A DNA stretch of 64,000 bases from Spirochaetia bacterium (GCA_965203905.1 CBDBDQ010000005.1:3552001-3616000); one strand, 5' to 3'; positions 7,399 through 23,432 are shown, numbered from the stretch's first letter. Made by a program: numbers and translations. The notes: generated by a model from the sequence alone, not told the origin.

Positions 7399-9480
7399 CT
7401 ACGCGTGGGGCGGGTGCCGATGCTCGACAAGTAGGTCGTCGAGGAACTCGGAGGCCGGTTCCACGCCGGTGACCAGGAGATGATCGCGGGCGCGCGTGCA
7501 TGCGACGTAGAGCAGGTGGCGCTCGGTGGTGTAGACCTCGTCGAGCTCGGCCTGATCGCCGACGCGCTCGATTCTCGCTTGCGACGGCAGCACTTCGTCA
7601 TCACACGCGGCGACGACTACGGCCCGAAACTCCAGGCCCTTGGCGAGGTGCATCGTGCCGACTGCGACGTTGCCCGAAACGCCGCCCGCGTGCTGCGCCA
7701 GATCGACCGCCGAATACTCTGCGGCTTCAACGGAGGCGATGGCTCTGTCCAGTTGGCCCTTCGATCGGACGAACACGCCCATCTCGTGCGGGGTGTACCC
7801 TTCCTCTCCGCGTGATCTCAGCCACTCGGCAATTGCGGCTGTCTCTTCATCGGGCGAGGGCGAGATCCGAATGGTTGGCTCGGCTCCGTTGAATACGGAG
7901 ACGGTGCCAGTTCGCCGGTCGGTGTTGCCGTCCACGTCCGAGGTCTCGGGCGGGAGTAGCCGGTCTGCCTGCCGCCGGATCTGATGGGAGGTGCGGTAGT
8001 TGACCCGCAAGGTGTGCGAGCGCCCCCGGATGTCGATCCCCAAGGCGCGCCAGGAGAACGGGGTCTGGAAGATCCGCTGACCGAGGTCACCGGCAAAGAA
8101 CAGGGCATCGGGGCGCCCGGCGCCGAGCGCAGCCAGGAAGCGCAACTCGGCCACCCCGATGTCCTGAGCCTCGTCGACCACGCAGAACTCGAACGGTGGA
8201 CGATCCATCTTCGCGAGCTGACGCTCCAGACATCCGAACAAGCGCGGCTCGGTCAGGAGCGCATGCTCGTCAAGAGCGGCGGCCACCTTGGAGAAGATCG
8301 ACCAGAGGATCTCTCGCTGCCGTTCCGGCAGGCGAGTCCTGCGACCGAGCCGCGGCACGTCCCGGTACTGTTCCCAGCTTGCAAGCTGCCAGGCATCGAC
8401 CACTCGGCTCCACTCGGTCCAGAGGAAGCGCAAGCTGAACCGGACGTCTCCAACCTTGGCGGCGGCTTGGCGCAACAGCTCGCGCACGCGATCCGGGGTT
8501 GCCAGATCGGGGCGGCCGAAATGTGCCTGGTAGAGGCGCCGCCCGATGTCGGCCATTGCGTGCACCTCCAGCCGCTCGCCGATCTTCGGCTCGTTGGCGA
8601 TGAGTCGCACCACTCGCGCCCGCAACGCATCCGCGAGTGCCGGGGAGAACGTGGTCAGCAGCACGCGCGCGTCCGGATGGGAACGGGCCAGATGCACCGC
8701 TCGGTGCAGCGCCACGATGGTCTTGCCGGTTCCGGCGGATCCTGACACCCGGGCCGGGCCGCGGTAGCTCCGCTCCACTACCTGCCGCTGAGCGGGATGC
8801 AGAAAGACCGTCCACTTCTCCCATGGATACTCAAGCGCCCGTCGCAACTCCTCCTGGTTGGACATGACTCGAAAACGGCGTTGAGCATCGGGATGGGCAA
8901 ATGGATCTCCATCCGTGGCTCCGGGGTCAGGCCGCACCGGTGTGCTCCCGGTAGCAAGCTCCAGCAGCACCTCGGCGGCCTCTGCGGGAAGATGATCCGC
9001 CAGGGCCAGGAGCGCGTCCTCGTCGGCTACCTGCCTGACGTCATCCAGCCACTCGCCGGGCACTCCGTACGCCAACAACTGACTGTCCGCGACGCCGGCG
9101 AACAGGGCGCGTTCGGCAGCGACGTAACGCGGGATCTCGACCTTGCGCACCACTTCGCGGACTTCGACGAGTTGCGCCGCACCGGTGTGGGGATGCTGTT
9201 CGAGGCGCCGGCGTTCCGCCCAGCGATACGCATCGTCGTGCTCTCCGACGTAACAGAGCAGGAGATTGGCCGCCGTCTTGTGCACGATCATGCGGACGCC
9301 GCGATTGACCCGAACCGACCAGAAATTCTTGTCCCTTGCCCGCTCCACCCGATGGAACTGCATCCCCGGCTGTGCCGGATTGAGTTGCAGATCGAATGCC
9401 GTCGTTTTGGCGGCGCGCTGCTCCTCGCCAGGCAGCTTCGCCAGGCTATCCGCAAACGTGTCGGCTATACGGAATTCCAC
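7399..9480 (-). CDS. SF1 UvrD-like helicase with N-terminal RelE-like domain
   Basis: GSAGTGKT, VDEAQD, NYRTS, TMHLAKGLEF, LLYVACTRAR; N-terminal FWSVRVNRGVRMIVHK...YVGEHDDAY. Confidence 0.9.
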   Translation of the reverse strand: MEFRIADTFADSLAKLPGEEQRAAKTTAFDLQLNPAQPGMQFHRVERARDKNFWSVRVNRGVRMIVHKTAANLLLCYVGEHDDAYRWAERRRLEQHPHTGAAQLVEVREVVRKVEIPRYVAAERALFAGVADSQLLAYGVPGEWLDDVRQVADEDALLALADHLPAEAAEVLLELATGSTPVRPDPGATDGDPFAHPDAQRRFRVMSNQEELRRALEYPWEKWTVFLHPAQRQVVERSYRGPARVSGSAGTGKTIVALHRAVHLARSHPDARVLLTTFSPALADALRARVVRLIANEPKIGERLEVHAMADIGRRLYQAHFGRPDLATPDRVRELLRQAAAKVGDVRFSLRFLWTEWSRVVDAWQLASWEQYRDVPRLGRRTRLPERQREILWSIFSKVAAALDEHALLTEPRLFGCLERQLAKMDRPPFEFCVVDEAQDIGVAELRFLAALGAGRPDALFFAGDLGQRIFQTPFSWRALGIDIRGRSHTLRVNYRTSHQIRRQADRLLPPETSDVDGNTDRRTGTVSVFNGAEPTIRISPSPDEETAAIAEWLRSRGEEGYTPHEMGVFVRSKGQLDRAIASVEAAEYSAVDLAQHAGGVSGNVAVGTMHLAKGLEFRAVVVAACDDEVLPSQARIERVGDQAELDEVYTTERHLLYVACTRARDHLLVTGVEPASEFLDDLLVEHRHPPHA

Positions 9481-9540
9481 GTCAGCCCTGGTTGTGCCTT
9501 GAAGGGGAAGCTGCGTCGAGAACGGGATCCCGATGTCATT

Positions 9541-12042
9541 TCAGAAATCTGCTGCGACGGTGGTTGCGACTCGATTCGCCACCTCCGCATAGAGATCGAC
9601 ATCGACTTCCGGTGCCCTGATGCTGACAACTAGGGAGTACCGGGCGGCCCGGTCGTAGCGTTCGAGACGCGTACGGGTCTTCCACCATCCCAGCGCAGGA
9701 TAGGCGGCGATACATGCGCGGCTAGCGAGATCAGCGGCGGTTCCACGCCAGATGTCGCTATGGAGGGAACCGCGATGGCGCGCCTGCTTGCCTATCAACC
9801 AATGAGGATCCTCGCCGCTTTGACTGGTTCCCTGCTCTTCGTCGCGCGCGGCGGAGTTTATCCTGGCCCTGAACTCGTCGACGGACTCGTAGGGGCGTTT
9901 GACATCGAAACGGAGACCGTGGGACTCGTAACGGTAGCGGGAACGCCCTCGTTGCGACGGGTTCGGCTCGATGAAGTAGGAGAGTGTGACACGCATCTCC
10001 ACCTCCGTGTCGCCGAGTGATTCCAATGTATCCTGCGGCCAAGGGAGATTATGTAGGTGCATATCGCGGAGCGTGGCTTGTTTGCCTGTCTCTCGCTTGA
10101 AGGGATGCAGGATTTCTTGAACCACCATCGTCAGCGAATTCGCGACGCTCCACAGAGCCCGGTCAAGGTTCGGCACGCCATACCCGCAGCGCCGGACCAG
10201 ACGCCTGTAGTCAGCCTTCTTCGGTTGTGTATTGGTGGGTAAATAGGCACTCCTCATGGCATCAGTCCACTCCGTCGAATGAACGACCAGAGCGCGAATC
10301 GTCTCGGGCCAGAGCGCCGGATATGCGGTCATCAATTGGGCTGACAGGCGTGCAGCCAACGCTGCGGCTGCACTGGTCGCATTTGAAGTAGTAAGCAGGT
10401 TCACCGTCGGGCGATGATGTGTGGTCAGAAGGCTCAGGCTGGGAAGGGAAACCGCGCTCAAACTGTCCTTAGCTGCATTGCCGCCTTCAAGGACTATGTC
10501 CGGCTTCAGCGGCCATTGTGGCGGCCACGTCAGCGAAGTCGTGCTGAACGGGCTCAGACCTCCTCTCGGTGCGATCGACTCATAATCGTCACAGTCGGGG
10601 TCGGTAATCCGTACTCGCTCCGTGTACGCTCCGACGGTCAGCGCGTTCCATGCCTGTGCGGGGTCATGAACGCCGTCAGAATCGTTGCTGTGCGGGTAGC
10701 GAGACCAAGCGTTGGGATCGTCGACGTTACCAGCCGATATGACGAGCAGGCGTGGGTCAGCGCCGTCACCATAGCTATCTGCGGCGAGAGCGTCGACGGC
10801 CGCTGACCAAGCCGACGGACGGCCTCGGTCACGGTCATCACGTGCGGTGACCGCCATTACAAAGACCCGCAACCTATTCGGTGCGGTAACTTCAGGCCGC
10901 GTAACCGCCTGCACCGTGAGATACCCATGGTGTTGTGGATCGGTTCCCCCGCTGCGTCCCTGTGGCAGAAGCTTGACCGACTCTAGCCGGTGGCTCACGT
11001 CCACGTGGGAGCTGCCTGCGAGAAGGTTGGTCAAGTCTCCGGCGAGGGCCAAACCCGCCATCTCCGTACCGTGCCCATTGCTATCTCCAACGCCCCACGC
11101 CGGTTCGACAGTGTGTAGATCGTTCGCAGCAAGCGCGTTCCTGAGCATCGGATGGCCTCGAGTCACGCCGGTATCCAGGATGCACACGTGCGCTATCTCC
11201 GCGGCGTCTTCGGCGAAGGAAGTTCGGGCAAGTAGATCGTCAATCCATTCGTACTGTTCTTCCTGCGGAAGCGAATCGAAGAACTCGGCCGTTTCCTTGG
11301 CACGCCGCAGCTCCGCAACACTGTTCAACGTGAGCATGGACCGTTCCATCTGTTCGACGGATGCCAATACATGCAGTACCGTGCGCTCAGGAAAGCTCAA
11401 CTCACCCGGTGCCACGCGCATGTCCTGCGCTTCCGCAAGATTGCGGAATGTGCCGACGGTTTCGTTTCTGTCCCGCCGAATGGGCAGCCAGACTTCCCAC
11501 CATATTGGTCTTTCCCGTTCCGACGGGAAAGCATCCAGGTCCGTCCATAGCGCTCGAAGGCTTGCGGCACGAATCTCCCGAATTGCGTTGATCAGCCGCT
11601 TGTGGTCAAGAGATCGCCCGATGCGGTCCTGTTTTTCCGCCAAGTAGTCTTCGACAAGGCCTTGGAAGTGAGTGAGCTTCCCATCGGGAACGAATACCGT
11701 GGCGTAGGTTCGACCTTGGTGGTGGCGGACATTCAACAACTCGATGCCGGAGCGGTCCCGTGCCAGGCTCTCGAATGCAAGCTCGATGTCAGGGAAGCTC
11801 TCAAACTCGATCCGAAGTCCGAATCCCTCTTCGAGCCCTGCGTCCTGTTGCGCTACGCGAGCCGCCTCGGCCTCGGACTGAAGCTCCCCAAGCTGCCGCA
11901 TCAAGCCTGCCCCATGCCTCTGGCGGTCGCGCGCCGGGATGGTAGGCCGGCCGCCTCCTTCCTGCGGAGAGCGATATGGCTCAACCTCGGTGACGCCCTC
12001 CAGGATAAAGTGCCGACTTCTCTCCTCCGTCCCGTTTGCCAT
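9541..12042 (-). CDS. S8 subtilase of the Y4bN/IetS-like type
   Basis: Catalytic motifs ILDTG, GHGTEMAG, VISAGN, KPDIV, NATSAAA; no signal peptide; 9 bp downstream of the AAA gene. Confidence 0.9.
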   Translation of the reverse strand: MANGTEERSRHFILEGVTEVEPYRSPQEGGGRPTIPARDRQRHGAGLMRQLGELQSEAEAARVAQQDAGLEEGFGLRIEFESFPDIELAFESLARDRSGIELLNVRHHQGRTYATVFVPDGKLTHFQGLVEDYLAEKQDRIGRSLDHKRLINAIREIRAASLRALWTDLDAFPSERERPIWWEVWLPIRRDRNETVGTFRNLAEAQDMRVAPGELSFPERTVLHVLASVEQMERSMLTLNSVAELRRAKETAEFFDSLPQEEQYEWIDDLLARTSFAEDAAEIAHVCILDTGVTRGHPMLRNALAANDLHTVEPAWGVGDSNGHGTEMAGLALAGDLTNLLAGSSHVDVSHRLESVKLLPQGRSGGTDPQHHGYLTVQAVTRPEVTAPNRLRVFVMAVTARDDRDRGRPSAWSAAVDALAADSYGDGADPRLLVISAGNVDDPNAWSRYPHSNDSDGVHDPAQAWNALTVGAYTERVRITDPDCDDYESIAPRGGLSPFSTTSLTWPPQWPLKPDIVLEGGNAAKDSLSAVSLPSLSLLTTHHRPTVNLLTTSNATSAAAALAARLSAQLMTAYPALWPETIRALVVHSTEWTDAMRSAYLPTNTQPKKADYRRLVRRCGYGVPNLDRALWSVANSLTMVVQEILHPFKRETGKQATLRDMHLHNLPWPQDTLESLGDTEVEMRVTLSYFIEPNPSQRGRSRYRYESHGLRFDVKRPYESVDEFRARINSAARDEEQGTSQSGEDPHWLIGKQARHRGSLHSDIWRGTAADLASRACIAAYPALGWWKTRTRLERYDRAARYSLVVSIRAPEVDVDLYAEVANRVATTVAADF

Positions 12043-12051
12043 GGATTGTGC

Positions 12052-13041
12052 TCAGGTGGTCAGGCGGGTGGCGATGCTGCGGCGTTCTTCGAGCATCGCG
12101 GTGATCTTTGCTTCTCCGACGAGCCCCGACTTGGAGTTGATCAGCGCATCCTTCAAGGCTTCGTCAGCGGCGCGCGAGATGTCGGCGTGACTCAGCCCTG
12201 TCGCGGTGGCAGCCAGCCGACTCCATGAGACACTCGTGACTACGGTTCGGGCCAGGCGCGTCTTCAGCAGCTCTGCGATCTGAGCCTCATCGGGCATGTC
12301 GTAGTGGAGTACGTCGTCGAACCGTCGAAAGAGCGCGGGATCGAGAATCTCGAAGTGATTGGTTGCGGCGATCACAAGGCTGTAGGAGCGTTCCTGTTCG
12401 ATCATCTGGAGAAAGCTGTTCAGCACTCGGCGGATCTCGCCCACATCGTTGGTGAGGCCACGTTGCGAGCCGATGGCGTCGAACTCGTCGAAGAAGTACA
12501 CGCCTCGCATGCGGCTCGTGGAGTCGAACACCTGTCGAAGCCGTGCGGCGGTCTCTCCCATGTATTTGGTGATCAGCCCGTCCAGGCGTACCTGCAGCAG
12601 CGCGAGCCCGAGTTCGGCTGCCAGCACTGACGCGGTCATCGTCTTGCCGGTGCCCGGGGGACCGACCAGGAGGAGCTTGCTCCGGGGGACGAGGCCCTGC
12701 TCGATGATGCGCCCGGCATGGCGCTGCTCGCGGATCACGCGCTCTATCTGCTGCGCAAGGGGATTGCTCAGGATCATTTGACGGAGGCGGGCTTTCGGGT
12801 ACGAAGTCTCCAGGAGGCTTGCTGAAGCTCCGTGCGGTCGGTCTGCCGACACGTGTCCGAGCGGCCGTGGGGGACGTCCATTCTTGGCCTCGTCTACCAG
12901 AGCCCGCAACTCGACGGCGAGCTTGCCATGCCCGAGCTTGGCCTCATGCGCCGCCACCTGCATGGCGACCGAGAGGAATCGCTCGTCGTCGCCCTTGATG
13001 TGCGACCTGAGCAGCGCCTTGATCTGTTCAGCGCTGGCCAT
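12052..13041 (-). CDS. AAA+ ATPase (IetA-like partner of the S8 protease)
   Basis: GPPGTGKT, FFDEFDAIG, AATNH...LDPALFRRFD. Confidence 0.92.
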   Translation of the reverse strand: MASAEQIKALLRSHIKGDDERFLSVAMQVAAHEAKLGHGKLAVELRALVDEAKNGRPPRPLGHVSADRPHGASASLLETSYPKARLRQMILSNPLAQQIERVIREQRHAGRIIEQGLVPRSKLLLVGPPGTGKTMTASVLAAELGLALLQVRLDGLITKYMGETAARLRQVFDSTSRMRGVYFFDEFDAIGSQRGLTNDVGEIRRVLNSFLQMIEQERSYSLVIAATNHFEILDPALFRRFDDVLHYDMPDEAQIAELLKTRLARTVVTSVSWSRLAATATGLSHADISRAADEALKDALINSKSGLVGEAKITAMLEERRSIATRLTT

Positions 13042-13071: not shown

Positions 13072-16020
13072 TCAAACGCGGAACACCTTCATTACCTCGT
13101 CGCCGAGGTGGTTGATGACCTTGACGGCGATGCGGCCGGAGGCCGGGCGGTCGAAGGGGCGGGAGGTGGCGCTGTGCAGGGTCTCCCACGCGTCACGGTG
13201 GATCTCGGCCTTGAGGGTGGTCTTGAGCGCTTTGTAGGGGTCGCTGGCGCCGAGGAAGTAGGCGTGGCGGACGAAGAAGCTCTCCTCGTTGTAGTCGGTG
13301 TCGACGAACCAGCAGGCGATGCCGTCGGGACCGTCGCTGCGGATTTCGCCGGTATTGGGATGGAACACGTCCACCCCGTTGACCTTGACCTGGATCTGGC
13401 CCGGCTTAGCCCCGTTGTCCTGGACCGGGATGATCTCGATGTCGGGCTCGCCGAAGATCACGAACAAGTTGCCCTTGCCGGTGTTCTTCAGGTCGCCGGC
13501 CATGTGCAGGTCGGCGTTCATACGCGCCTTGAGGACCGGGATGCGGCCGAGCTTGCTGAACTCGGACGCGTGCGCCTCGTAGCTGAACGCGCAGGCGACC
13601 AGGACGTCGAAGTCGGCATCAGCGGCTTCGCGGGCGGCAGCGACCAGATCGGGGCGGGTAACGGTGCCGAACTCGGGGCCGATGAAGATGCCCGCGCGGC
13701 GCTCGATCCCGGTGTCCGCATCACCTTCGATGTAGCGTCCTTCGGCGCCGATCAGATCGCCCGGCCAAGGGCTGAGGACGTTGAAGGAGATTCGATCCTC
13801 GCGGTGCGCCTGCTGCACGCCGGAGGTCTTCAGGTGCTCCAGGATCATGGTCGCGAAGTCCTGCTGCTCGCCGTAGCCGGTCTTGTTCTCGGCAAGATGG
13901 TCGATCAGCTTGTCATTCTCGTCGACGCCGAGTGTGCGGTGGGGCGCAAGGCTCTCCACCGTGAACGGGCCGGCGACGCGGACGACTCCACGATCCTCGT
14001 ACGGCTTGTCGTACAGGTACTCGAAGTCCGCCTTGGCGGCGATGGAGGCATCGATCTCCTCCTGTCGCGCAATGCGCGCTTCCCACCAGCGGCGGTGCAG
14101 TTCGGTCGGTGCAGCTTCCCACGGGTCGTGCGGCTCGTCGGGGACCTCCTCAGGCGTGTAGGTGCGGCCGAGAACGTTATTCAGTTCCAGCAGAGCCGTC
14201 CTTTTCTCCGCGTCGGAGTGGGCGGACTGGAGTTGCCTCCACGCGGCTGCAGCCGTCTCAGGCCACGGGTCCCCAGCCTCCCGAGGGATCTCCCACTCCT
14301 CCCACGCACGGCCCAATACATCGTTCAGTTCCTCCTGCAGCGGCTCCAGTGTGTCCTGCCACCGTTCCCATATCACGTCGATCTCGACGTTGTTAGCGAT
14401 CGACTTCAGGGTGATGTGCGGCACCCGCTCGTATACGAAACCCTGCCGGACGTCGTCGCCTGTGGGGCTGTCGGACGGCACGGTCTGGGTGAGCTCCGCT
14501 TCCTTCTGCCGTCCCGCCGGGCTGTCGGCGAGCAGGTAGTAGGGATAGCGCGCCGCCATGATGCGGGAACGAGCCAGTGCCAGCGCTACGCGGGACGTGT
14601 CGATGGTGATCCAGCGCCGTCCCCATTGTTCGGCTACATACGCGGTGGTACCAGAGCCGCAGGTCGGGTCCAGCACCAAGTCGCCGGGGTCGGTGGTCAT
14701 CAGGATGCAACGTTGGACAACCGAACGGTTCGTCTGGACAACATAAACGTTTGGATCAGCGAAACCAGACGTAATAGTATCAACCCAGAGATTCGAGTGA
14801 GGGAATATGCGAAAGTCATCCAAGAATCGAACATATCGGAGCGTACTTCCAATAAAGATCATGCGCTTCGCGTGTGCGATACGCCTCAGTCCGTCCGCAT
14901 CTGTTTTGAAAGTACCCTTGTTCACATAAAATGACTTCCCTTCGAATGTGAAGTCGCGAACGTCATCGCCCTGTGCCGGTCTTTGGCTGGTAATGTTGTC
15001 ATGAGCAAATACTTTCAACGAATCTTGTTTGATGCTCGACGCCTCCCAATCTACTAATGTTGCACGCGTACCTGACGCATCCTCACCAAAATTGTATTGG
15101 GTAGCGCCAGTGCCTCTGGGCTGCTTAATCTGGAATTGCGGTCGATATTTTGGTGTTGTTGATTTACTGAACCAAAGCAGCAGATCGAAAACTCCCGAAA
15201 GTGCTTCTGACGACGTGGAGGAGGTCTTCTGAAATACAATCTCTGAAACGAAGTTATCCTTTCCGAAGACTTCGTCCAACAGAGCGCGGACCAAATGGAC
15301 ATTCTCATCGCCGATCTGAACGAAGATGCTGCCGCTCTCCGTGAGCAGGTCTCGGGCCACCGTCAACCGGTCGCGCAGGTACGTGAGATACGAGTGGATG
15401 CCGTCACGCCATGTGTCGCGGAAGGCCTTGACCTGCTCGGGCTCGCGCGTGATGTGCTCGGCTTTGCCGTCCCTCACGTCGCGGCTCGTGGTGGACCACT
15501 GGAAGTTGGAGTTGAACTTGATGCCGTAGGGCGGGTCGATGTAGATGCATTGTACCTTGCCGCGCAGCCCTTCGCGTTCGGCGAGCGAGGCCATCACCTG
15601 CAGGCTGTCGCCGAGGATCATGCGGTTGGACCAGTTGGCGTCGTGGCGGTAGAACTCCGTTCGGGCGTTGTCGTCCGGCAGCCCGTTGAAGTCCGAGAAC
15701 AGGTCGAGCTGGTCGTCAGCCGCTTGCTCTCCTTCCTTGCTGCGGCGTAGCAGGTCGTCGATCAGCACCTTCGGATGGACCTTCTCCTGGATGAACAGCG
15801 GCGGCGCCTGCACCACGAGGTCGGACCAGTCCTGTTCGTCCTTGCCGCGCCACACGAGCTGCGGGTCGAGGTCTCGGTTACGGCGCCCATACGCCACCCG
15901 GATGGGGCTCTGATCGGCCTTCTCCATCACCGACTGATACTCCGCCGTGGGAATGTTCCTGCGCGACGCCTCGTCGTGCGTAATGGTATCGACGGTCTTG
16001 GTCTTTCTTCGTTTCGCCAT
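13072..16020 (-). CDS. mod: Type III restriction-modification methyltransferase subunit (beta class)
   Basis: YIDPPYG before LDPTCGSGTT; variable lower-GC target-recognition segment at ~14740-15300. Confidence 0.92.
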   Translation of the reverse strand: MAKRRKTKTVDTITHDEASRRNIPTAEYQSVMEKADQSPIRVAYGRRNRDLDPQLVWRGKDEQDWSDLVVQAPPLFIQEKVHPKVLIDDLLRRSKEGEQAADDQLDLFSDFNGLPDDNARTEFYRHDANWSNRMILGDSLQVMASLAEREGLRGKVQCIYIDPPYGIKFNSNFQWSTTSRDVRDGKAEHITREPEQVKAFRDTWRDGIHSYLTYLRDRLTVARDLLTESGSIFVQIGDENVHLVRALLDEVFGKDNFVSEIVFQKTSSTSSEALSGVFDLLLWFSKSTTPKYRPQFQIKQPRGTGATQYNFGEDASGTRATLVDWEASSIKQDSLKVFAHDNITSQRPAQGDDVRDFTFEGKSFYVNKGTFKTDADGLRRIAHAKRMIFIGSTLRYVRFLDDFRIFPHSNLWVDTITSGFADPNVYVVQTNRSVVQRCILMTTDPGDLVLDPTCGSGTTAYVAEQWGRRWITIDTSRVALALARSRIMAARYPYYLLADSPAGRQKEAELTQTVPSDSPTGDDVRQGFVYERVPHITLKSIANNVEIDVIWERWQDTLEPLQEELNDVLGRAWEEWEIPREAGDPWPETAAAAWRQLQSAHSDAEKRTALLELNNVLGRTYTPEEVPDEPHDPWEAAPTELHRRWWEARIARQEEIDASIAAKADFEYLYDKPYEDRGVVRVAGPFTVESLAPHRTLGVDENDKLIDHLAENKTGYGEQQDFATMILEHLKTSGVQQAHREDRISFNVLSPWPGDLIGAEGRYIEGDADTGIERRAGIFIGPEFGTVTRPDLVAAAREAADADFDVLVACAFSYEAHASEFSKLGRIPVLKARMNADLHMAGDLKNTGKGNLFVIFGEPDIEIIPVQDNGAKPGQIQVKVNGVDVFHPNTGEIRSDGPDGIACWFVDTDYNEESFFVRHAYFLGASDPYKALKTTLKAEIHRDAWETLHSATSRPFDRPASGRIAVKVINHLGDEVMKVFRV

Positions 16021-16196: not shown

Positions 16197-17438
16197 TCAC
16201 GCATGGGCAAGCTCCTGTTCGACATCGTGCGGTTGTTTGTTCCGGTGGGTGCGCTCGAACAGATCGAGCTGGCGCGGAGCGGACCGCTGCGGGTCGGGGC
16301 GGAGCTGATCCATTCGTAACAGTTCGCCGGCGGTGAACAGGTGATCGCGGAGCGCGGAGCGGCCGGCCTCGTCGAGGGGGCCGATCCTGGTTTCGGCGTG
16401 CTCGGACCGGACGGCGAGGATCGCGCTCTCAGGTATCGTATCGTTGTCGAGCAGATCCGCACTGTGGCTCGTGACCACGACCTGAGCCAACTGACTGGCG
16501 TCAGTGAGGCTGTCGAAGAGGACTCCGGAGGCAGCCGGGTGAAGGGCGCTCTCCGGTTCTTCGATGCCGACCAGGTGGCGGCGGCGCATCGGATCACCCT
16601 TGCTCTGAAACAGCGCTACCAGGACACCCAGTGCGCGCAAAGTGCCGTCCGACATGTTGCCTGCGAGGAACTGCGATGGTTGCCTGGCGCCCCGTACATC
16701 CTGATGGAAATCGAGGGTCAGCTTGCTGCCGATCGTTCGTGCCGCAACACCGGTGACCCCGGGAGTCATTGCAGCGAGGTACTCTTCCACTACCGTCCTT
16801 CGGTCTCCGTGGAGGTTGGACAGAACGCTCGCCAGGTTGCTGCCGTCCCGTTTCAGGAGCTCGCCCGGGTCAGGTGCCTGCAGATCGCGGATTGCGTCCG
16901 GATTCAGGTTGTAGAAGCCCATTCCGGAAAGTGCGTCATAGAGTGAGCGGAACACGTCGAATCCAGACATGTTCACGAGGTAGAGGCGGTCGCTGGCGCA
17001 GGCCGGAGGATTGGGTATGGTGCTGGCCTCGACTTTGCCGTTTGCTACTTTGTACGAGCCGTGGCCGCCCTCGCCCACGAGGAAGCACTCTTCCTGCTGG
17101 ACGCTGTAGCGGCCGCCGGGCTTCGCCGCAACCCGAAACGCATACCAACCCTCCGCCCGAGGGAGCTGAAGATCAAGGCGAATGCCGAAGTGGTTCGGAT
17201 GGCCGCCGGAGCGTCTCCGTACCTCCTGGATGCCGCCGCGGTCGCGCAGCGCGTGATCGAGCGAGAAGCGTAGCGCCTCGGCCACGAAGCGTAAGGCATC
17301 GAGGAAGTTGCTCTTGCCGCAACCATTCGGACCTACGAGAAACGACAGGGGCGCGGGATACACGTCACAGGCGGCGATGCTCTTGTAGTTCCGCAGGGCG
17401 ATCCTGGTCACCAGCCGCGGGTCGGTGTGTCCGCTCAT
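16197..17438 (-). CDS. ABC/SMC-type ATPase (AAA_21-like)
   Basis: GPNGCGKS, MSDGT, IEEPE, VVTSHS. Confidence 0.9.
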   Translation of the reverse strand: MSGHTDPRLVTRIALRNYKSIAACDVYPAPLSFLVGPNGCGKSNFLDALRFVAEALRFSLDHALRDRGGIQEVRRRSGGHPNHFGIRLDLQLPRAEGWYAFRVAAKPGGRYSVQQEECFLVGEGGHGSYKVANGKVEASTIPNPPACASDRLYLVNMSGFDVFRSLYDALSGMGFYNLNPDAIRDLQAPDPGELLKRDGSNLASVLSNLHGDRRTVVEEYLAAMTPGVTGVAARTIGSKLTLDFHQDVRGARQPSQFLAGNMSDGTLRALGVLVALFQSKGDPMRRRHLVGIEEPESALHPAASGVLFDSLTDASQLAQVVVTSHSADLLDNDTIPESAILAVRSEHAETRIGPLDEAGRSALRDHLFTAGELLRMDQLRPDPQRSAPRQLDLFERTHRNKQPHDVEQELAHA

Positions 17439-17598
17439 GTCTCCTGCAGGGACTCTTCAGTCCGTTCGCCTTCTGGTACGACAATCATCTGACCTGCAAT
17501 GACTGCCCCAACGGTTCGTCCCAGTGGTCTCTCATGGTGCCTCTCACCTCGGCGTCCTTGCACCAATACGGTACCGATGTGGAGCACGTAGTGACCAC

Positions 17599-17775
17599 CT
17601 ACTGGCCAACGGGCGTGCCTTGCGGGCGTTTCGGCGGCCGCGAAACGACTCGTCGTTCGCCTAGCCGCTGCTTCTCTTGCAGATCCCGACAGATCGCGTC
17701 CAGGTCATGATCGAACTTCCTGGCGTATGCATTGCGTATCTCTCGGATCTCCTTGACTATGGGATCTTCCAGCAC
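17599..17775 (-). CDS. Small protein (58 aa) typically downstream of this PIN family; now in frame with the frameshifted PIN remnant
   Basis: RBS GAGG then GTG; EDPIVKEIREIRNAYARKFDHDLDAICRDL. Confidence 0.6.
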   Translation of the reverse strand: MLEDPIVKEIREIRNAYARKFDHDLDAICRDLQEKQRLGERRVVSRPPKRPQGTPVGQ

Positions 17776-17780
17776 AAACC

Positions 17781-18249
17781 TCATTCCTCCATTAATCCGA
17801 GTGGCGTACAGAGCCCCTTGGTACCCCGAGAACGCGCAGATGGCCTGAATTTGGTCGTGCAGTGCCGCGTTGGCGATGTGCCGACAATTCCAAGTCAACA
17901 GGTAGTCAATCCCATTGACGGTAGCTACCGCGATATGCAGCGCGTCGATTCCAGCTCTGTCGGGCAGGGGAGAATCAGCAAGCGACGATTTGGACAAGTT
18001 CCGTACGTCATCACTGATTGCGAGTACAGGAATATCCCCGATTGCCGAGAGCCGTCGTTGCGCTGCCCCGGGGTCACGTGACGATGCCTTTTCAACGACC
18101 GCTTGCGAAACGAACAGGTCGTACTTAATTCGTTGCTCGTCCCACCACATTCGTGTGACTTAATGGTGGGCTGCCATCATGAGTTGCAAACTTCTCCAAG
18201 CAGTCGAGTAGCTGATCACAGTCGTCTCGAGATACACACTCTGCCGCAC
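17781..18249 (-). pseudogene. vapC: PIN/VapC-family toxin pseudogene
   Basis: GTG start, RQSVYLETTVISY; in-frame TAA at codon 30 (18160-18162); DALHIAVA...DYLLTWNCRHIANA; the native ending LCTPLGLMEE* lies in another frame. Confidence 0.8.
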
Positions 18250-18590
18250 CGGTTCCTCGCTACGTCCGATCACTCAACAATCGAAAACGAAGCCGTCGTG
18301 ACTTGGTTCGACCCACCCGCGACGAGCCGAGGAAAAATCCTGGCGAAAACATACTTGTCTAACCAACCTAACCCTATCTTGTTACTGTAATCGACGGAGT
18401 TCATGTTGATTCTCTGCCATCTCCTGACGAACTAGAGTCTCTCGGGAATCAAGATCGGCCTCCCCTGAACGATCAGATTCGCTTGCAGAGCGGTTAGGAA
18501 ACATGGGGAAATCTGTTGGACTTCGTCTGATCGGTGGAGGGGAGGTGCAAGTGCGCGTAACAGAAGCCGGTGCCGGTGTCCAGTTGGCAT

Positions 18591-18962
18591 CTAACTAACC
18601 CCACCAATCACCGAATTCAAATCATGGAACCAGGTTAAGCCACAATTCGTGCAGTATTGTGAGATGAACAGTCTGTAGCCTCTACCGTCCACAAGGAGTG
18701 AGGTCTCGCCGTCCCTCTCAACAGTGCCCGAGGAATACGTGCCTACCATGATCCTGGAATCGACTTCCAGGTTGCGGTTGTCTGCCTTACAACATGGTCC
18801 CATGGGGAACATATTGAAATGTGCTTTGACAAGTCGTATTGTCTTGTCCGTCATCGTTCCGTCCGGGTTGTATAATTCGGTCGGCAGTGGGATCGTTACT
18901 CCCAGCGGTTGAAGTGATCTATCCATTTGAAGGAATATAACATGTATATTCCTACCTGTCAA
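18591..18962 (-). CDS. Hypothetical protein, 123 aa, probable zinc ribbon
   Basis: GPCCK...YCTNCGLTWFH; RBS-like GGTGGGG. Confidence 0.6.
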   Translation of the reverse strand: MTGRNIHVIFLQMDRSLQPLGVTIPLPTELYNPDGTMTDKTIRLVKAHFNMFPMGPCCKADNRNLEVDSRIMVGTYSSGTVERDGETSLLVDGRGYRLFISQYCTNCGLTWFHDLNSVIGGVS

Positions 18963-19125
18963 TCCCCACCATCACAACGGGCACTCAAGGGGGTGTGCTG
19001 TCAATGTCTAACGACGTACGGTTGGAAGCCAAATTCCGAGACCAATAGATCAGAATTGAGAACCTGAAGAATCGCCGATTGACACGAAGGTTCGAAACAG
19101 GGTACGGTACCGGCTGGAGGGAGAT

Positions 19126-19983
19126 ATGGAAGAATTCAAATACGATGTTGTGTTGTCGTTTGCCGGTGAGCAGCGAGCGTACGTTAGGGAGGTTGCGGAC
19201 GAACTCAAGAGGATAGGCTTGGCAGTTTTCAACGCTGATGACGAACGTACGGAATTGTGGGGAAAGGACTTGCCGTCCTATCTGTGGCAAGTATTTGATA
19301 GGGATGGTCGCTATTGCGTCTTGTTTGTTTCTGCGGAGTCGGTGGAAAAACAGTTCCCAAAACACGAACGTCGCAGCGCGCTGACGAGAGCTTTGAGGGA
19401 AAAATCAGAATATGTTCTGCCCGCTCGTTTTGACGACATCGAAATCCCACAGCTAACAAACGTACACTACATTGACTTAAGAGATATGAGCCCGGTCGAG
19501 TTCGCCGGTATAATTGCGGAGAAGGTGTCATCGGATGAAGGTGTGCCGTCACAGTCGTCTGAGCGTAGTGAGGCGGAGGATATGGCGTACTACAAGCTGC
19601 TGGCATCTGTAGAATCGCTCAAAGGAGAGTCCTTATCCGTGCAGAATCGTATGCTCATTATACAAGACAACCTGGGGGTCGTACGTCGTGTTGTGGACGA
19701 GATAGTGCTGGATCACAAGGACAAGCACATTTTTCGTCACGACCTTGAGAAGAAGGTCGTTCTTGATCAGGATGATGACGGTCATAAACTTAGGTGTATG
19801 TTGGATAGGAACACTGTGCAGGATAGTACGTTGACCATTGAAGCTCTTGCAGAGGAACTAAGGACCTGTTTTCTCGATTGGAGAAGAGTTGAGCTTGCTT
19901 TGGCGGATGCCACGCGAAAGGTAGAAGAAGAAAAGTCAAAGAGAGGTATTTGGAATTTCCGAATCGAAACCAAGCCTCTGTGA
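19126..19983 (+). CDS. Toll/interleukin-1 receptor (TIR) domain protein with C-terminal coiled-coil region
   Basis: KYDVVLSFAGEQRAYVREVA, ELWGKDL, YCVLFVS, KHERRSAL (candidate catalytic Glu), EYVLPARFDD, YIDLR; RBS GGAGG. Confidence 0.9.
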   Translation: MEEFKYDVVLSFAGEQRAYVREVADELKRIGLAVFNADDERTELWGKDLPSYLWQVFDRDGRYCVLFVSAESVEKQFPKHERRSALTRALREKSEYVLPARFDDIEIPQLTNVHYIDLRDMSPVEFAGIIAEKVSSDEGVPSQSSERSEAEDMAYYKLLASVESLKGESLSVQNRMLIIQDNLGVVRRVVDEIVLDHKDKHIFRHDLEKKVVLDQDDDGHKLRCMLDRNTVQDSTLTIEALAEELRTCFLDWRRVELALADATRKVEEEKSKRGIWNFRIETKPL

Positions 19984-20417
19984 GTGCAGGACACCTTAAA
20001 GGTGTAAGACGATCAGGACAAGGAGGGCCATAATAAACGTTCAGAAAGTTTGAAAACCCGATTATTTTATCGACGCGATGATTTGAGGTTCAAGGTGTGG
20101 GTCCACTTGACAACTCAATCGTCGTGCCTCTTGTAAGAACCGCTCCGCGAAAGAAGACAATTGTGCTCGGTGGAGTAAGTATGACGTGAAGTACTTGAAG
20201 GATGACGAAGTTGGAGAAAAAACCTGGGAGAAGGCGCGAGTCGCTGCCCTTCCGAGAAGGGAATTGAAACGGCTTCAATGTGCATGGGCTTGTCAGCTTC
20301 GCCGGAATCGGGTGAAAAGGTTGTTAATGAGTCCATAGCGCGTTATGACCTGGTTGTGTAGGCTTGTCAATCACCGGTTCAAAAAAGAAACCACGTAACT
20401 CCGTGCTTGGAATGGGG

Positions 20418-23400
20418 TTAGTTAGGTATGTTATTGCCAAAATCCTCCCGCAGCGTATACACGTCGGTGAACTCCGCGAACCGCCAGCGCCCGTACGTTT
20501 CCAGTCCGTTGACGCCAGGCACCCACTGGGTCTCCATGGTTGCCTTCTTTTCCTTGGCGTCCTCGCGGCGGTAGCCCTTGATCTCGACCACGAGGTGGAG
20601 CAGATCGTCCTCGCCCCGCCCATCGTCGACAAGCACGATGAAGTCGGGGAGGTAGGTGCGCGCCTCGGAGCCGTACCGGTAGGGAACCTCCAGCCCCAGG
20701 GCGTGGTTCTTGACGTAGGCGTGGACCTGCGGCTGCGACTCGACGAAGCGGCAGAATTCCGCCTCCCAGTTGCTGTCGCAGACCACCCAGTTCACGTGGC
20801 AGCGGAGCGGGTGAGTCTGCCAGCGGGTCGGCTTCGAGGTGGTGAAGTTGACGTGGATCGTCGAGCCCGTCGGGTTGTAGGGGTCAAGCACCGCCGTCAC
20901 TGCGCGATCTCTCAGATGGCGCGCCACGATGCCACGGGTGATGCGGGTGCAGGCCTGATCAGCCAGCTCCTGGTACATGAGCTGGGCGGGGTAGGTGCCA
21001 CCCTTGCAGACCAGGTGGTCGTCCAGCCAGCGACGCGTGACCCGCTTGAGCTGGCCGAACAGGTGCAGCTTCGGCTCCTGATCCGGATCCCGCCAGTGTT
21101 TCTCCAGCAACGTCTTGGTCAAGTGGTAGACCAGCGTCGATGGGCGTAGATCCCGGCGGTGGATCAGGTTCAGGTCGACGCCTTCACCAATGATCCCGGC
21201 GTTGTGAGTGATGGAAGGACCGACGATCTCCGGGGTGAGCACGAGCGTCGAGTCGTCGTCGAACTTCGCGTCCACGTGCTCCTCGGGCAGCTCTACGCGG
21301 TAGCCCTGGACGCGCGGAAACCGGATCTCGCAGGCGTCTCGATCCGGGGTAATCGCCCGGACCGCTACCGTCTTGCGCGGCTTCTGTGGCTTGGCGACGA
21401 CCGGCTGGGCGGTGAAGTCGAACGGGATGCCGAGCACGTCGGCATACTCGACGTTGAACCGCTCCTTTTCGTTGAGATCGTAGGACTGGCGGCGCAGGGC
21501 GCGACCGACCACCTGTTCGCACAGGAGCTGGGTGCCGAACGCGCGCACCCCGAGAATGTGCGTGACGGTGCGCGCATCCCAGCCCTCGGTGAGCATCGAC
21601 ACCGATACCACGCAGCGCGTGGAGCCCCCGAGCCGGCCTGCAACACCCACGGTGTTCATCACTTCGCGCAGCAGATCCTGGTCGGAGAGGTTCTCCGCCT
21701 GCCGAAGGTCGCCGGTGCGCGTAACGATCTCCTTGCGGAAGCGCTCGATCTCGTCGGTCGCGGCGACCCGGAAGTCCTTGCCGAGCGCTTCACCGGAGTC
21801 GAGTTGCTCGCTGTCGATCAGCAGGGTGTGCGGTCTGCCGAGCGGGTTGCCGAAGTCGTCGAAGTTGCGGAACAGCTCTAGCCGCCCGTTCTCGAACGAC
21901 GAGGAGCCGTCCTCATGTTGGCGCTGGAACCCCGATATGTAGTCGTAGACCAGCTTCGAGGTCGCCGTGTTGTTGCACACCACGATGAAGCAGGGCGGAA
22001 CATCGATGTCGGCCTCGCGCCACTGGTCGAACACCTTCGCGTAGTGGCCGTAGAGCGCTTCGAGCGCGGTCTGCAGCTCCACGGGAATGCTCAGCGGGTC
22101 GAGCACCGCGGACTTGGCGCGGCCCTTGCGGGGCATCCGCTTGCCGATGTGCTCCCACAGGTTGCGGAACTTGGGCATGTCGGCGCCGGGGATGTTGTCG
22201 GCCACCGGCACCCGCGGCAGCTTGACGATGCCGCACTCGATCGCGTCCATCAGCGAGAAGTCGCTCATCGTCCACGGAAACAGCGTGCCCTCCGCGTAGC
22301 CCGAGCCGCGCAGGAAGAACGGCGTGGCGGAGAGATCGATCACCCGGCTCAGGCCCAGCCTGCGCTGCACCACCTCCAGCCCGGATATCCACACCCGCGC
22401 GGCTTCGCTGTTCTTCTTCGCCTCCTGGCGGTCGTCTCCGGTGAGCTTGCCCTCGTCGCTCTCCTGCTCCGGTTTCTCGCGGTAGCAGTGATGGGCCTCG
22501 TCGTTGAACGCCATGATGCGCTTCATGCCCATCAGGCCGGGCATCACCCGCTGCAGCATCTGCCCCTCGGTCTCCAGCGTCTGCAGCTCCGGGCCGCGGC
22601 CCTGCAGCAGCGCGCGCCCGCCTTTCGAGATGTCCTGCGTCTCCCGCCGCATGAAGGCGTGGTAGTTGGTGATGACGATGTTGGCACGGTTCAGGTCGCC
22701 GAGCATGTCGCGCGGCACCAGCTCGCGGCTCTGGTAGTAGCTGTCGGGGTCGTTGGGCTGCAGCACGCGCAGCCGGTCGCGGATGGTCAGGCCGGGGGTC
22801 ACCACCAGGAAGCCGCGCGTGAAGCGGCGGCTGTTCGGATGGCGCACCGCGTTGATCGTCTGCCAGGCGATCAGCATCGCCATCACGGTGGTCTTGCCGG
22901 CGCCGGTGGCGAGCTTGAGCGCCAGGCGGGTGAGGCCGGGATTGGCCTCCTGGTTCGCCGCCTCCAGGTGCTGCAGGAACTGCCGGCCTTCCCGTCCGGC
23001 ACCGGGGGCGGCAACCTCGGTCAGCCAGATCACGGTCTCCACCGCCTCGACCTGACAGAAGAACGGACGCAGGTCGCTGAACTGGTGGTGCCGCCAGTGG
23101 TGGAGCAGTCGAGCGGTTTCCGGCGTGACCCGCCACTGGCCACGGGGCAGCCTGCGCCACTCGTTCACGCTGTTGCGTACGCTCTCGATCATCCGCATCA
23201 GTTCGTACTGCTGCCCATCCTCGTCCGGCGTCCTGCCGGCATCGTCGAGACCCAGCTCGCTCTGTTTCGCGGTCTGCTTGCGAGCCGCGGGGATCGGGGT
23301 GATGAACGACACGGTACGACGGCGGTCGATGATGTGGTTGGTGGGCTGCCGGTTCTCGTCCAGCTCCCAGTGCCGCGCCGGGTACTCGTACGGCGAGTTC

Positions 23401-23432
23401 AGAATCGGCTGTTCGAAAAACCGCTCGTCCAC
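20418..23432 (-). CDS. res: Type III restriction endonuclease/helicase subunit; last six residues come from the inserted cassette
   Basis: ATGAGKT, DEAHH, LSATP, MLTEGWD, QVVGRALRR; C-terminal YLPDFIV...VVEIKG nuclease motif. Confidence 0.92.
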   Translation of the reverse strand: MDERFFEQPILNSPYEYPARHWELDENRQPTNHIIDRRRTVSFITPIPAARKQTAKQSELGLDDAGRTPDEDGQQYELMRMIESVRNSVNEWRRLPRGQWRVTPETARLLHHWRHHQFSDLRPFFCQVEAVETVIWLTEVAAPGAGREGRQFLQHLEAANQEANPGLTRLALKLATGAGKTTVMAMLIAWQTINAVRHPNSRRFTRGFLVVTPGLTIRDRLRVLQPNDPDSYYQSRELVPRDMLGDLNRANIVITNYHAFMRRETQDISKGGRALLQGRGPELQTLETEGQMLQRVMPGLMGMKRIMAFNDEAHHCYREKPEQESDEGKLTGDDRQEAKKNSEAARVWISGLEVVQRRLGLSRVIDLSATPFFLRGSGYAEGTLFPWTMSDFSLMDAIECGIVKLPRVPVADNIPGADMPKFRNLWEHIGKRMPRKGRAKSAVLDPLSIPVELQTALEALYGHYAKVFDQWREADIDVPPCFIVVCNNTATSKLVYDYISGFQRQHEDGSSSFENGRLELFRNFDDFGNPLGRPHTLLIDSEQLDSGEALGKDFRVAATDEIERFRKEIVTRTGDLRQAENLSDQDLLREVMNTVGVAGRLGGSTRCVVSVSMLTEGWDARTVTHILGVRAFGTQLLCEQVVGRALRRQSYDLNEKERFNVEYADVLGIPFDFTAQPVVAKPQKPRKTVAVRAITPDRDACEIRFPRVQGYRVELPEEHVDAKFDDDSTLVLTPEIVGPSITHNAGIIGEGVDLNLIHRRDLRPSTLVYHLTKTLLEKHWRDPDQEPKLHLFGQLKRVTRRWLDDHLVCKGGTYPAQLMYQELADQACTRITRGIVARHLRDRAVTAVLDPYNPTGSTIHVNFTTSKPTRWQTHPLRCHVNWVVCDSNWEAEFCRFVESQPQVHAYVKNHALGLEVPYRYGSEARTYLPDFIVLVDDGRGEDDLLHLVVEIKGYRREDAKEKKATMETQWVPGVNGLETYGRWRFAEFTDVYTLREDFGNNIPN

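Follow-up and report, generated by a model that had tools for sequence, protein, structure and literature searches.

The stretch of DNA considered here is a window of 64,000 nucleotides (nt) from the genome of a Spirochaetia bacterium (GCA_965203905.1, CBDBDQ010000005.1:3552001-3616000; genome G000). Within it lies a restriction-modification locus whose restriction endonuclease gene, res, carries at its extreme 3' end a short, low-GC insertion with two passenger genes, one encoding a small, cysteine-rich protein and the other a protein with a TIR domain. The features are collected in Table 1. We conclude that the inserted DNA is very probably a mobile insertion cassette (MIC), derived in non-autonomous form from a group of the insertion sequence (IS) family IS1595 whose members carry passengers, and that it was inserted by transposition, with its TIR gene, at the restriction-modification locus.

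Table 1. Features of the cassette and of its surroundings, in positions of the window (aa, amino acids)
Feature	Position	Strand	Remarks
Whole cassette	18342..20438	.	2097 bp; GC 0.487; without transposase
Target-site duplication, left copy	18334..18341	.	8 bp; AAAATCCT, direct reading
Target-site duplication, right copy	20439..20446	.	8 bp; AAAATCCT, direct reading
Left terminal inverted repeat	18342..18364	+	GGCGAAAACATACTTGTCTAACC; 18/23 positions equal to right end
Right terminal inverted repeat	20416..20438	-	reverse complement GGCAATAACATACCTAACTAACC
Passenger gene 1, Cys-rich protein	18591..18929	-	112 aa; invariant CC and CTNCG
Promoter-like site	18934..18962	-	TTGACA-17-TATATT, TG before -10, 11/12; just upstream of passenger gene 1
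Passenger gene 2, TIR-domain protein	19126..19983	+	285 aa; TIR domain at about residues 1-137
Target gene res (restriction endonuclease)	20418..23432	-	now 1004 aa; last 19 codons replaced by 6 codons of the cassette end
Displaced original 3' tail of res	18274..18333	-	19 codons and stop, severed by the insertion
HEC-01A/MAD3-like ATPase gene	16197..17438		matches HEC-01A at 6e-156
Type III methyltransferase gene	13072..16020		
S8 subtilase and AAA ATPase genes	9541..13041	-	833 aa, then 329 aa
UvrD-like helicase gene	7399..9480		adjoins the S8 and AAA genes

The boundaries of the cassette can be read to the base. The duplicated target is exact, with all eight positions alike on either side, and it abuts inverted ends of which the left begins with GGCGAAAACATAC at 18342, while 20426-20438, reverse-complemented, reads GGCAATAACATAC. 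The GC content inside contrasts with 0.606 in the 5 kb to the left and 0.664 in the 5 kb to the right. The original prediction, which was made from the sequence of the window, had described the 8-bp duplication, the inverted ends and the low GC, and all three hold on direct reading, the ends proving longer than proposed at 23 nt with 18 identical positions. It had also described a further inverted repeat, ACGGAGTT, at 18394-18401 and 20397-20404, and this we set aside as being at chance level. When the subterminal 100 nt were shuffled 5000 times, a similar inverted 8-mer appeared in 515 cases, and the two copies lie at unequal distances from the cassette ends, for which reasons the repeat is given no weight. 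No part of the cassette has an Rfam match at E <= 0.1, and its copy number in its own genome is one.

What did the insertion do to res? The gene encodes a BPTD_3080 family restriction endonuclease (NCBIfam, 1332 bits, with positions 1-969 of the 970-position profile on residues 6-1001), and Pfam finds ResIII and RE_endonuc in its product. The stop codon used at present is supplied by the right cassette end. When the cassette and one copy of the repeat are removed in silico, the reading frame grows from 1004 to 1017 aa. Judged by its predicted product, the gene is altered only past the conserved part of the protein and is otherwise intact.

The event can also be seen from the other side, in a related genome that lacks the cassette. 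In G005, which belongs to the same genus, a match to the left flank runs for 771 bp at 90.5% identity and stops exactly at the left cassette boundary; the right flank is matched over 27 bp, 6 bp of which overlap with the left match. The sequence of the locus reads as left flank, a single AGAATCCT, and right flank, and it is an unoccupied site with one copy of the target. In another genome, G001, res is intact and its end likewise contains the target AAAATCCT a single time. The original prediction had proposed a search of related genomes for just such an empty site, and in G005 both flanks are indeed joined over one target copy. It is because this unoccupied site exists, and not on the basis of statistics, that the cassette is regarded as more than a product of chance. 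A DNA search of 40 related genomes with positions 17000-22000 of the window gave no match to the cassette interior among the matches listed.

To which family do the ends belong? Two features define the IS1595 family in the section of PMC8101967 that treats it: a duplication of 8 bp, and the presence of one transposase only, which bears a zinc finger at its N-terminus and a DDE domain at its C-terminus. We found 16 other complete elements that have paired 23-nt ends of the cassette type and an 8-bp duplication (L027, L035, L038, L039, L042, L061, L068, L081, L106, L116, L128, L134, L138, L123, L152, and L153; loci L108, L115, and L127 repeat two of these and are left out of the count). The duplication is perfect in 14 and matches at 7 of 8 positions in the remaining 2. 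The transposase gene has an intact frame of 315-345 aa in 13 of the 16, is disrupted in L027 and L116, and is missing from L123. All six transposases submitted to Pfam contain both DDE_Tnp_IS1595 and Zn_ribbon_IS1595, the three group transposases compared with NCBIfam are all named “IS1595 family transposase,” and the remaining seven were recognized by tblastn at 47-80% identity to the Pfam-confirmed ones. Twenty-eight ends, taken from 14 of the complete elements, give the consensus GGCAAtAAcATACTTGACTAACC, with similarity ending at nucleotide 23; each cassette end departs from the strongly conserved positions of this consensus at two places. The ends of the cassette evidently belong to a real group of IS1595-family transposons, as the original prediction had suggested in likening them to those of that family.

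The same ends recur at several phylogenetic distances. The genomes of the family were scanned with a 23-letter IUPAC end pattern, allowing at most 2 mismatches and using the backwards pattern as a control; 4 of 24 genomes gave matches (G000 itself and 3 of the 23 others), and the control gave none. The window's own genome holds three further matches to a loose end pattern with 0 mismatches, at C3:39123, C5:4758225, and C5:4758026. Among public contigs, the exact end pattern occurs in 10 stretches of the genome_contigs collection, mostly from Acidobacteriota to judge by their titles, and in 45 of metagenome_contigs, and the 17-letter core of the pattern in 65 stretches; in the scanned loci L034-L099, which include the exact-pattern stretches of genome_contigs and the window's own L044, 28 of 67 matches have a GG before them at the correct spacing. 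When the family genomes were searched with one cognate transposase as protein query, intact relatives were located in two of them. G007, of the same genus, carries an intact 3156-bp cognate element with the target-site duplication TTTTTTTG (L152, 5548-8703) and its transposase gene at L152 7636-8673, and G020, of the same family, carries a complete 4731-bp cognate element with the duplication CAAGCTTA and an intact transposase (L153, 4008-8738). In addition, G018 has a complete 2455-bp element with the duplication GATCAATC, the frame-shifted transposase of which is in two pieces, one resembling the N-terminal and the other the C-terminal part of such a transposase in the IS1595 family. Both further copies of the ends and intact IS1595 transposases bounded by them, which the original prediction had suggested looking for, were found in this way.

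Against this background, it is scarcely credible that the repeats arose by chance, or that the DNA arrived as an integron cassette or by a site-specific recombinase or homologous recombination, with no relation to IS1595. The absent transposase gene is the one feature that such routes would account for. They are opposed by the other elements bounded by the same 23-nt ends, each with its own duplication and 15 with an IS1595 transposase gene, by the silence of the backwards control in 24 genomes, and by the unoccupied site with exactly one target copy.

The cassette itself has lost, or never had, the gene for its own movement. Pfam gave TIR_2 and nothing else among the five cassette open reading frames (ORFs) tested, and tblastn with six cognate transposases as queries found no remnant, the best E value being 0.13; the lack of a recognizable transposase had been predicted. 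The single transposase of IS1595 elements, with its Zn_ribbon_IS1595 and DDE_Tnp_IS1595 domains, is absent, and since neither an ORF nor a remnant of it is present, the cassette is an IS1595 derivative rather than an insertion sequence in its own right. A term for such objects exists. In the passages of PMC3129680 devoted to them, MICs are IS-related objects without a transposase of their own that can be activated by a cognate transposase. The cassette likewise has IS-type ends and a target duplication around passenger genes, with no transposase between them. As for a cognate transposase in the same genome, intact ones are found instead in G007 and G020. With known MICs, among them MIC231 of Bacillus cereus, which derives from IS231, and the cassettes carrying qnrD and qnrS2, it shares IS-type ends, duplication, passengers and the lack of a transposase, and such MICs are presumed to be moved in trans by a cognate transposase. 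It differs from MIC231 in its parent family, which is IS1595 and not IS4/IS231, and in its cargo of a TIR-domain gene and a small, Cys-rich protein; it also differs from MIC231-type cases in that no cognate transposase survives in the host genome. The nearest relative there is a C-terminal transposase fragment (C3:87192-87455, about 55% identity), three other genes of IS1595 type, at 30-40% identity, survive as frame-shifted relics, and the end scan of the genome found no ends of the cassette type beside these relics. Left with nothing but degraded IS1595 transposases in its genome, the cassette is at present stranded.

Within the IS1595 family, the closest likeness is to the passenger-carrying members, or “transporter IS” (Siguier, Gagnevin and Chandler 2009, as cited in parts of PMC3129680 and PMC8101967). 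The cassette likewise has an 8-bp duplication, ends starting with GG, and passengers inside. Unlike these elements, it has no transposase at all, and its end group has been placed in no named subgroup, such as ISPna2 or ISNwi1; a literature search pairing ISPna2 and ISNwi1 gave no match that would name one.

Transposase-less forms recur among the relatives. L123, on a metagenome contig, is a 1596-bp element with an alpha/beta-hydrolase gene, no transposase and a duplication matching at 7 of 8 positions; its two ends agree at 22 of 23 positions, and one of them is identical to the left cassette end at 22 of 23. Two further low-GC stretches without transposase in the window's own genome stop at such ends, each being incomplete on the opposite side. 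The first (L002, about 8900-10125; G000:C3:37900-39125) has a GC content of about 0.47 and a perfect end, GGCGATAACATACCTAACTAACC, exactly at which a paralogue of a multi-copy response-regulator gene is broken. Its left end was not found, nor does the left half of the response-regulator gene lie beside it. The second (L003, about 6300-8226; G000:C5:4756300-4758226) has a GC content of about 0.49 and two ends in the same orientation, GGTGACAATATAC and GGTAACAATATAC, 199 bp apart. The idea that the C3 stretch and the C5 stretch at 4758k are copies of one cassette was rejected, their shared DNA amounting to 120, 38, and 43 bp, and they consequently offer no proof that a transposase-less unit has transposed. 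Two side observations concern these stretches: the small ORFs of the C3 stretch have no Pfam family, one of them opening with a hydrophobic, signal-peptide-like segment, and the C5 stretch is cut off on its other side at a minus-strand ORF that resembles, by eye, an IS3-type helix-turn-helix transposase orfA.

Did the cassette ever move without a transposase gene? An autonomous, passenger-carrying IS1595 element could instead have been inserted and have lost its transposase gene in place later, the cassette never having moved in its present form; we think this unlikely, and several facts do speak for it. Of the 16 other complete elements, only one is without a transposase gene in either intact or disrupted form, the IS1595 transposase genes of the cassette's own genome are visibly decaying, and the insertion is old enough to be common to strains that have diverged by about 3-5%. 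No frame of the cassette, however, retains a trace of transposase by tblastn (best E value 0.13). The room beside the left end is taken up by a conserved gene that has a promoter-like site of its own, L123 is just as clean of any transposase and has an end that is nearly identical, and the C3 and C5 stretches add two more with such ends in the same genome.

The age of the insertion was judged from contigs of four public sequencing runs that cross its junctions. The right junction is bridged by contigs from a second sample of organism A (X6), and the left by contigs of one metagenome (X2) and of organism B (X7), the latter being about 95-97% identical both within the cassette and outside it in the flanking DNA. 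Wherever a contig crosses a junction, the cassette occupies the same site, and it follows from its presence there in related strains that the insertion is inherited and not fresh. A variant was noted at the left side: one X2 contig joins 17637 directly to 18373, thereby lacking 17638-18372, which comprises most of a 183-aa ORF, the left copy of the duplication and the first 31 bp of the cassette. A different X2 contig spans the intact left junction. The ORF concerned (17599-18150, minus strand, no family) lies in a segment, 17441-18333, that is variable between res and the HEC-01A-like ATPase gene. This segment is found in G005 at 91% identity and is absent from G007 and G001, where the gap between res and the ATPase gene measures 67-68 bp.

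What does the cassette carry? Pfam TIR_2 matches the 285-aa protein at E 7.1e-15. A phmmer search of PDB sequences with the protein itself gave 0 matches and a profile was required; built from 33 homologues, it matches the AbTIR/BtTir chains 7uxr, 7uwg, and 8g83 with E values of 4e-7 to 3e-6. The AlphaFold2 model has a predicted local distance difference test score (pLDDT) of 59-93 over residues 1-140 and is confident for residues 1-137, and its top Foldseek match is AbTir 7uxu (TM 0.79 on target, E 1.2e-6), followed by SPARTA TIR-APAZ. The predicted fold of the protein is that of an AbTir-like TIR domain. Glu81 is invariant among the 33 aligned sequences and falls, in the alignment, on the glutamate of the W-x-x-x-E motif (WTEYE/WTNYE in 7uxr/7uwg), which we take to be the catalytic residue of NAD-cleaving TIR enzymes; by this likeness, the protein would be an NADase. 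The TIR fold and the aligned, conserved glutamate are held in common with bacterial TIR NADases and immune effectors (AbTir/BtTir, SPARTA TIR-APAZ, ThsB). The protein differs from the AbTir, SPARTA, and Thoeris proteins in having a private C-terminal domain and neither an Argonaute nor ThsA adjacent to it. With regard to Thoeris, no neighbor is of the ThsA type, in which SIR2 or another NAD-degrading domain is combined with a SLOG sensor, and the genome has 0 SIR2_2 matches, other ThsA types not having been searched for.

The C-terminal half of the protein belongs to no known family. Among the best 120 of 565 matches, only four other proteins reach at least 96% query coverage, with 83-98% identity, and in the remainder the TIR half is fused to other domains. 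Of 92 genomes of the order, only G000 yielded the protein, and none of 114 pattern matches to TIR relatives in genome_contigs was confirmed. TIR_2 matches a further four times in G000, including one tandem pair (C5:4181520-4182350, C5:2163038-2166010), all away from the cassette.

Six homologues of the small, Cys-rich protein were found, with 61-93% identity, and no family was assigned to it by Pfam, NCBIfam, or PADLOC; the Protein Atlas offered only unnamed clusters at 0.90, below recognition level. Its start is placed at the ATG at 18929, because the homologues begin there and because the TTG upstream is part of the -35 hexamer. The promoter-like site to which this hexamer belongs is a consensus match only, and the region has three such sites against 1.6 expected. 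In a sample of 401 genomes from the phylum, this protein turned up only in G000, and of 262 pattern matches to its relatives in metagenome_contigs none was confirmed. Neither passenger has a homologue in the 139 loci collected for their ends, and these give no second site for the cargo. The low GC of the cassette, together with the restriction of its cargo to G000 in the order and phylum samples, marks the cassette as evidently of foreign origin.

Might the two genes serve the cassette rather than the cell? They could form an addiction, or selfish, module in which a TIR NADase toxin is restrained by the small, Cys-rich protein, thereby stabilizing the cassette. The genes are adjacent and divergent, close homologues of both (98% for TIR, 93% for the small protein) occur on metagenome contigs, both of 8605 bp, and PIN genes, which are typical of toxin modules, are carried together with an upstream partner gene by two other elements of the group. 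No antitoxin family, however, matches the small protein. Toxin-antitoxin pairs are usually operonic, and the divergent layout seen here would be unusual for one. We regard an addiction module as improbable.

A role in defense is suggested rather by the cargo's domain content, and the surroundings are of the same kind. The type III methyltransferase and the HEC-01A/MAD3-like ATPase genes lie around the cassette, and beyond them the S8 subtilase, AAA ATPase, and UvrD-like helicase genes combine with the restriction-modification genes into about 16 kb of defense-type genes. By gene content, the cassette evidently sits inside a defense island. Inside the type III methyltransferase gene, GC falls to 0.47-0.52 at 14600-15400, which would fit a swapped target-recognition domain. 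Farther away, a stretch at 4380-6041 with a GC of 0.44-0.53 and small ORFs without families lies beside two minus-strand tRNA genes, identified by ARAGORN as tRNA-Pro(tgg) at 5621-5708, unusually long at 88 nt, and tRNA-Arg(ccg) at 5714-5784; the stretch may be an island integrated beside the tRNAs. An end-like motif at 6018-6041 has no GGC start and 2 core mismatches, and was treated as uncertain.

The passengers of the related elements give the cargo a wider context. All 16 complete relatives, at 1596-4731 bp, exceed a bare insertion sequence in size, and all carry passenger DNA. PIN genes with an upstream partner gene are found in L042 and L061, and DUF3800 genes in L106, L128, and L116, the last of which also has HNH and VRR_NUC. 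L035 encodes a Trypsin_2 protein and a 377-residue protein without a Pfam match, while L123 has its alpha/beta hydrolase. In the G007 element (L152), two overlapping frames share between them a fusion of an N6_N4 DNA methyltransferase with an HNH nuclease, which may be a mobile restriction-modification-like module, and the G020 element (L153) holds a nested, complete ISAZ013-type IS (DDE_Tnp_ISAZ013, E 4.5e-146). These passengers fit a group that ferries accessory genes, many of them conflict-type.

How, then, would the cassette have come to its present place? The DDE transposase of the group would have bound both 23-bp ends and brought the cassette into its target, AAAATCCT, at the very 3' end of res, with duplication of 8 bp. 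The enzyme would have been supplied in trans by a cognate element then present in the cell, or else by a gene since lost. With no intact cognate transposase left, the cassette would have become stranded and been inherited vertically. The TIR-domain protein would most likely act as a single-protein sensor-effector, responding to phage infection by NAD+ depletion or a nucleotide signal. The original prediction, of a cassette moved in trans that spreads defense genes, stands in the main: the insertion, ends, duplication, family, and lack of a transposase are borne out, as is a TIR domain in the cargo, while mobilization in trans is a step that we infer, and spread has one site and the domain content behind it. 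From the same domain content, a defense role of the cargo would be expected.

Several observations weigh against this account. (i) The unoccupied site in G005 sits within a rearranged res gene, and its right flank is contiguous for only about 27 bp before a 661-bp deletion relative to the window. (ii) The host genome holds no intact cognate transposase. (iii) The cassette is a single copy at a single site, with no second insertion site in the four runs, and because only this one site is seen, the mobility of the cassette is deduced from one event. (iv) The C-terminal half of the TIR-domain protein is modeled with a pLDDT below 50. (v) Named defense systems match the protein weakly and in its TIR part only (PADLOC PDC-S66 at 6e-8, ThsB at 4.2e-6), and the NCBIfam retron TIR model scores 37 bits where the cut-off is 600. 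(vi) The passengers of the group are not all defense-like, since they include the alpha/beta hydrolase and several without a family. With these points considered, we still hold an IS1595-derived MIC, inserted by transposition, to be much the best explanation of the locus.

How new is this? Insertion sequences with passengers and transposase-less cassettes are both concepts already in print, and no new mechanism is at work here. A literature search for defense or TIR cargo in insertion sequences found no such cassette described in the portions of text it reached, PMC6563490 included; it ran without supplements or ISfinder and is not proof of absence.

The spread of small defense genes between distant bacteria is usually credited to phages, plasmids, integrons, and large islands. 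Here, with breakpoints resolved to the base, a TIR gene is found in the smallest possible vehicle, two 23-bp transposon ends, which landed in an existing restriction-modification locus without destroying it. The case also defines an IS1595 group that always carries cargo. It is a tentative extension, and no more than a possible one, that the group with GGCAAtAAcATACTTGACTAACC ends is an obligate cargo carrier and that, together with its transposase-less derivatives, it constitutes a minimal vehicle of about 2-4 kb, by which immune modules of one or two genes would pass from phylum to phylum (Acidobacteriota and the lineage of the window) and into defense islands. What suggests it is that 0 of 16 elements are bare insertion sequences and that the recognizable passengers are mostly conflict-type (PIN in two, DUF3800 in three, HNH with VRR-NUC, methyltransferase-HNH, a trypsin-like protease, and TIR). 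The value of the cassette is that of a worked example and a testable system, in which the intact members of the group allow a direct test of transposition.

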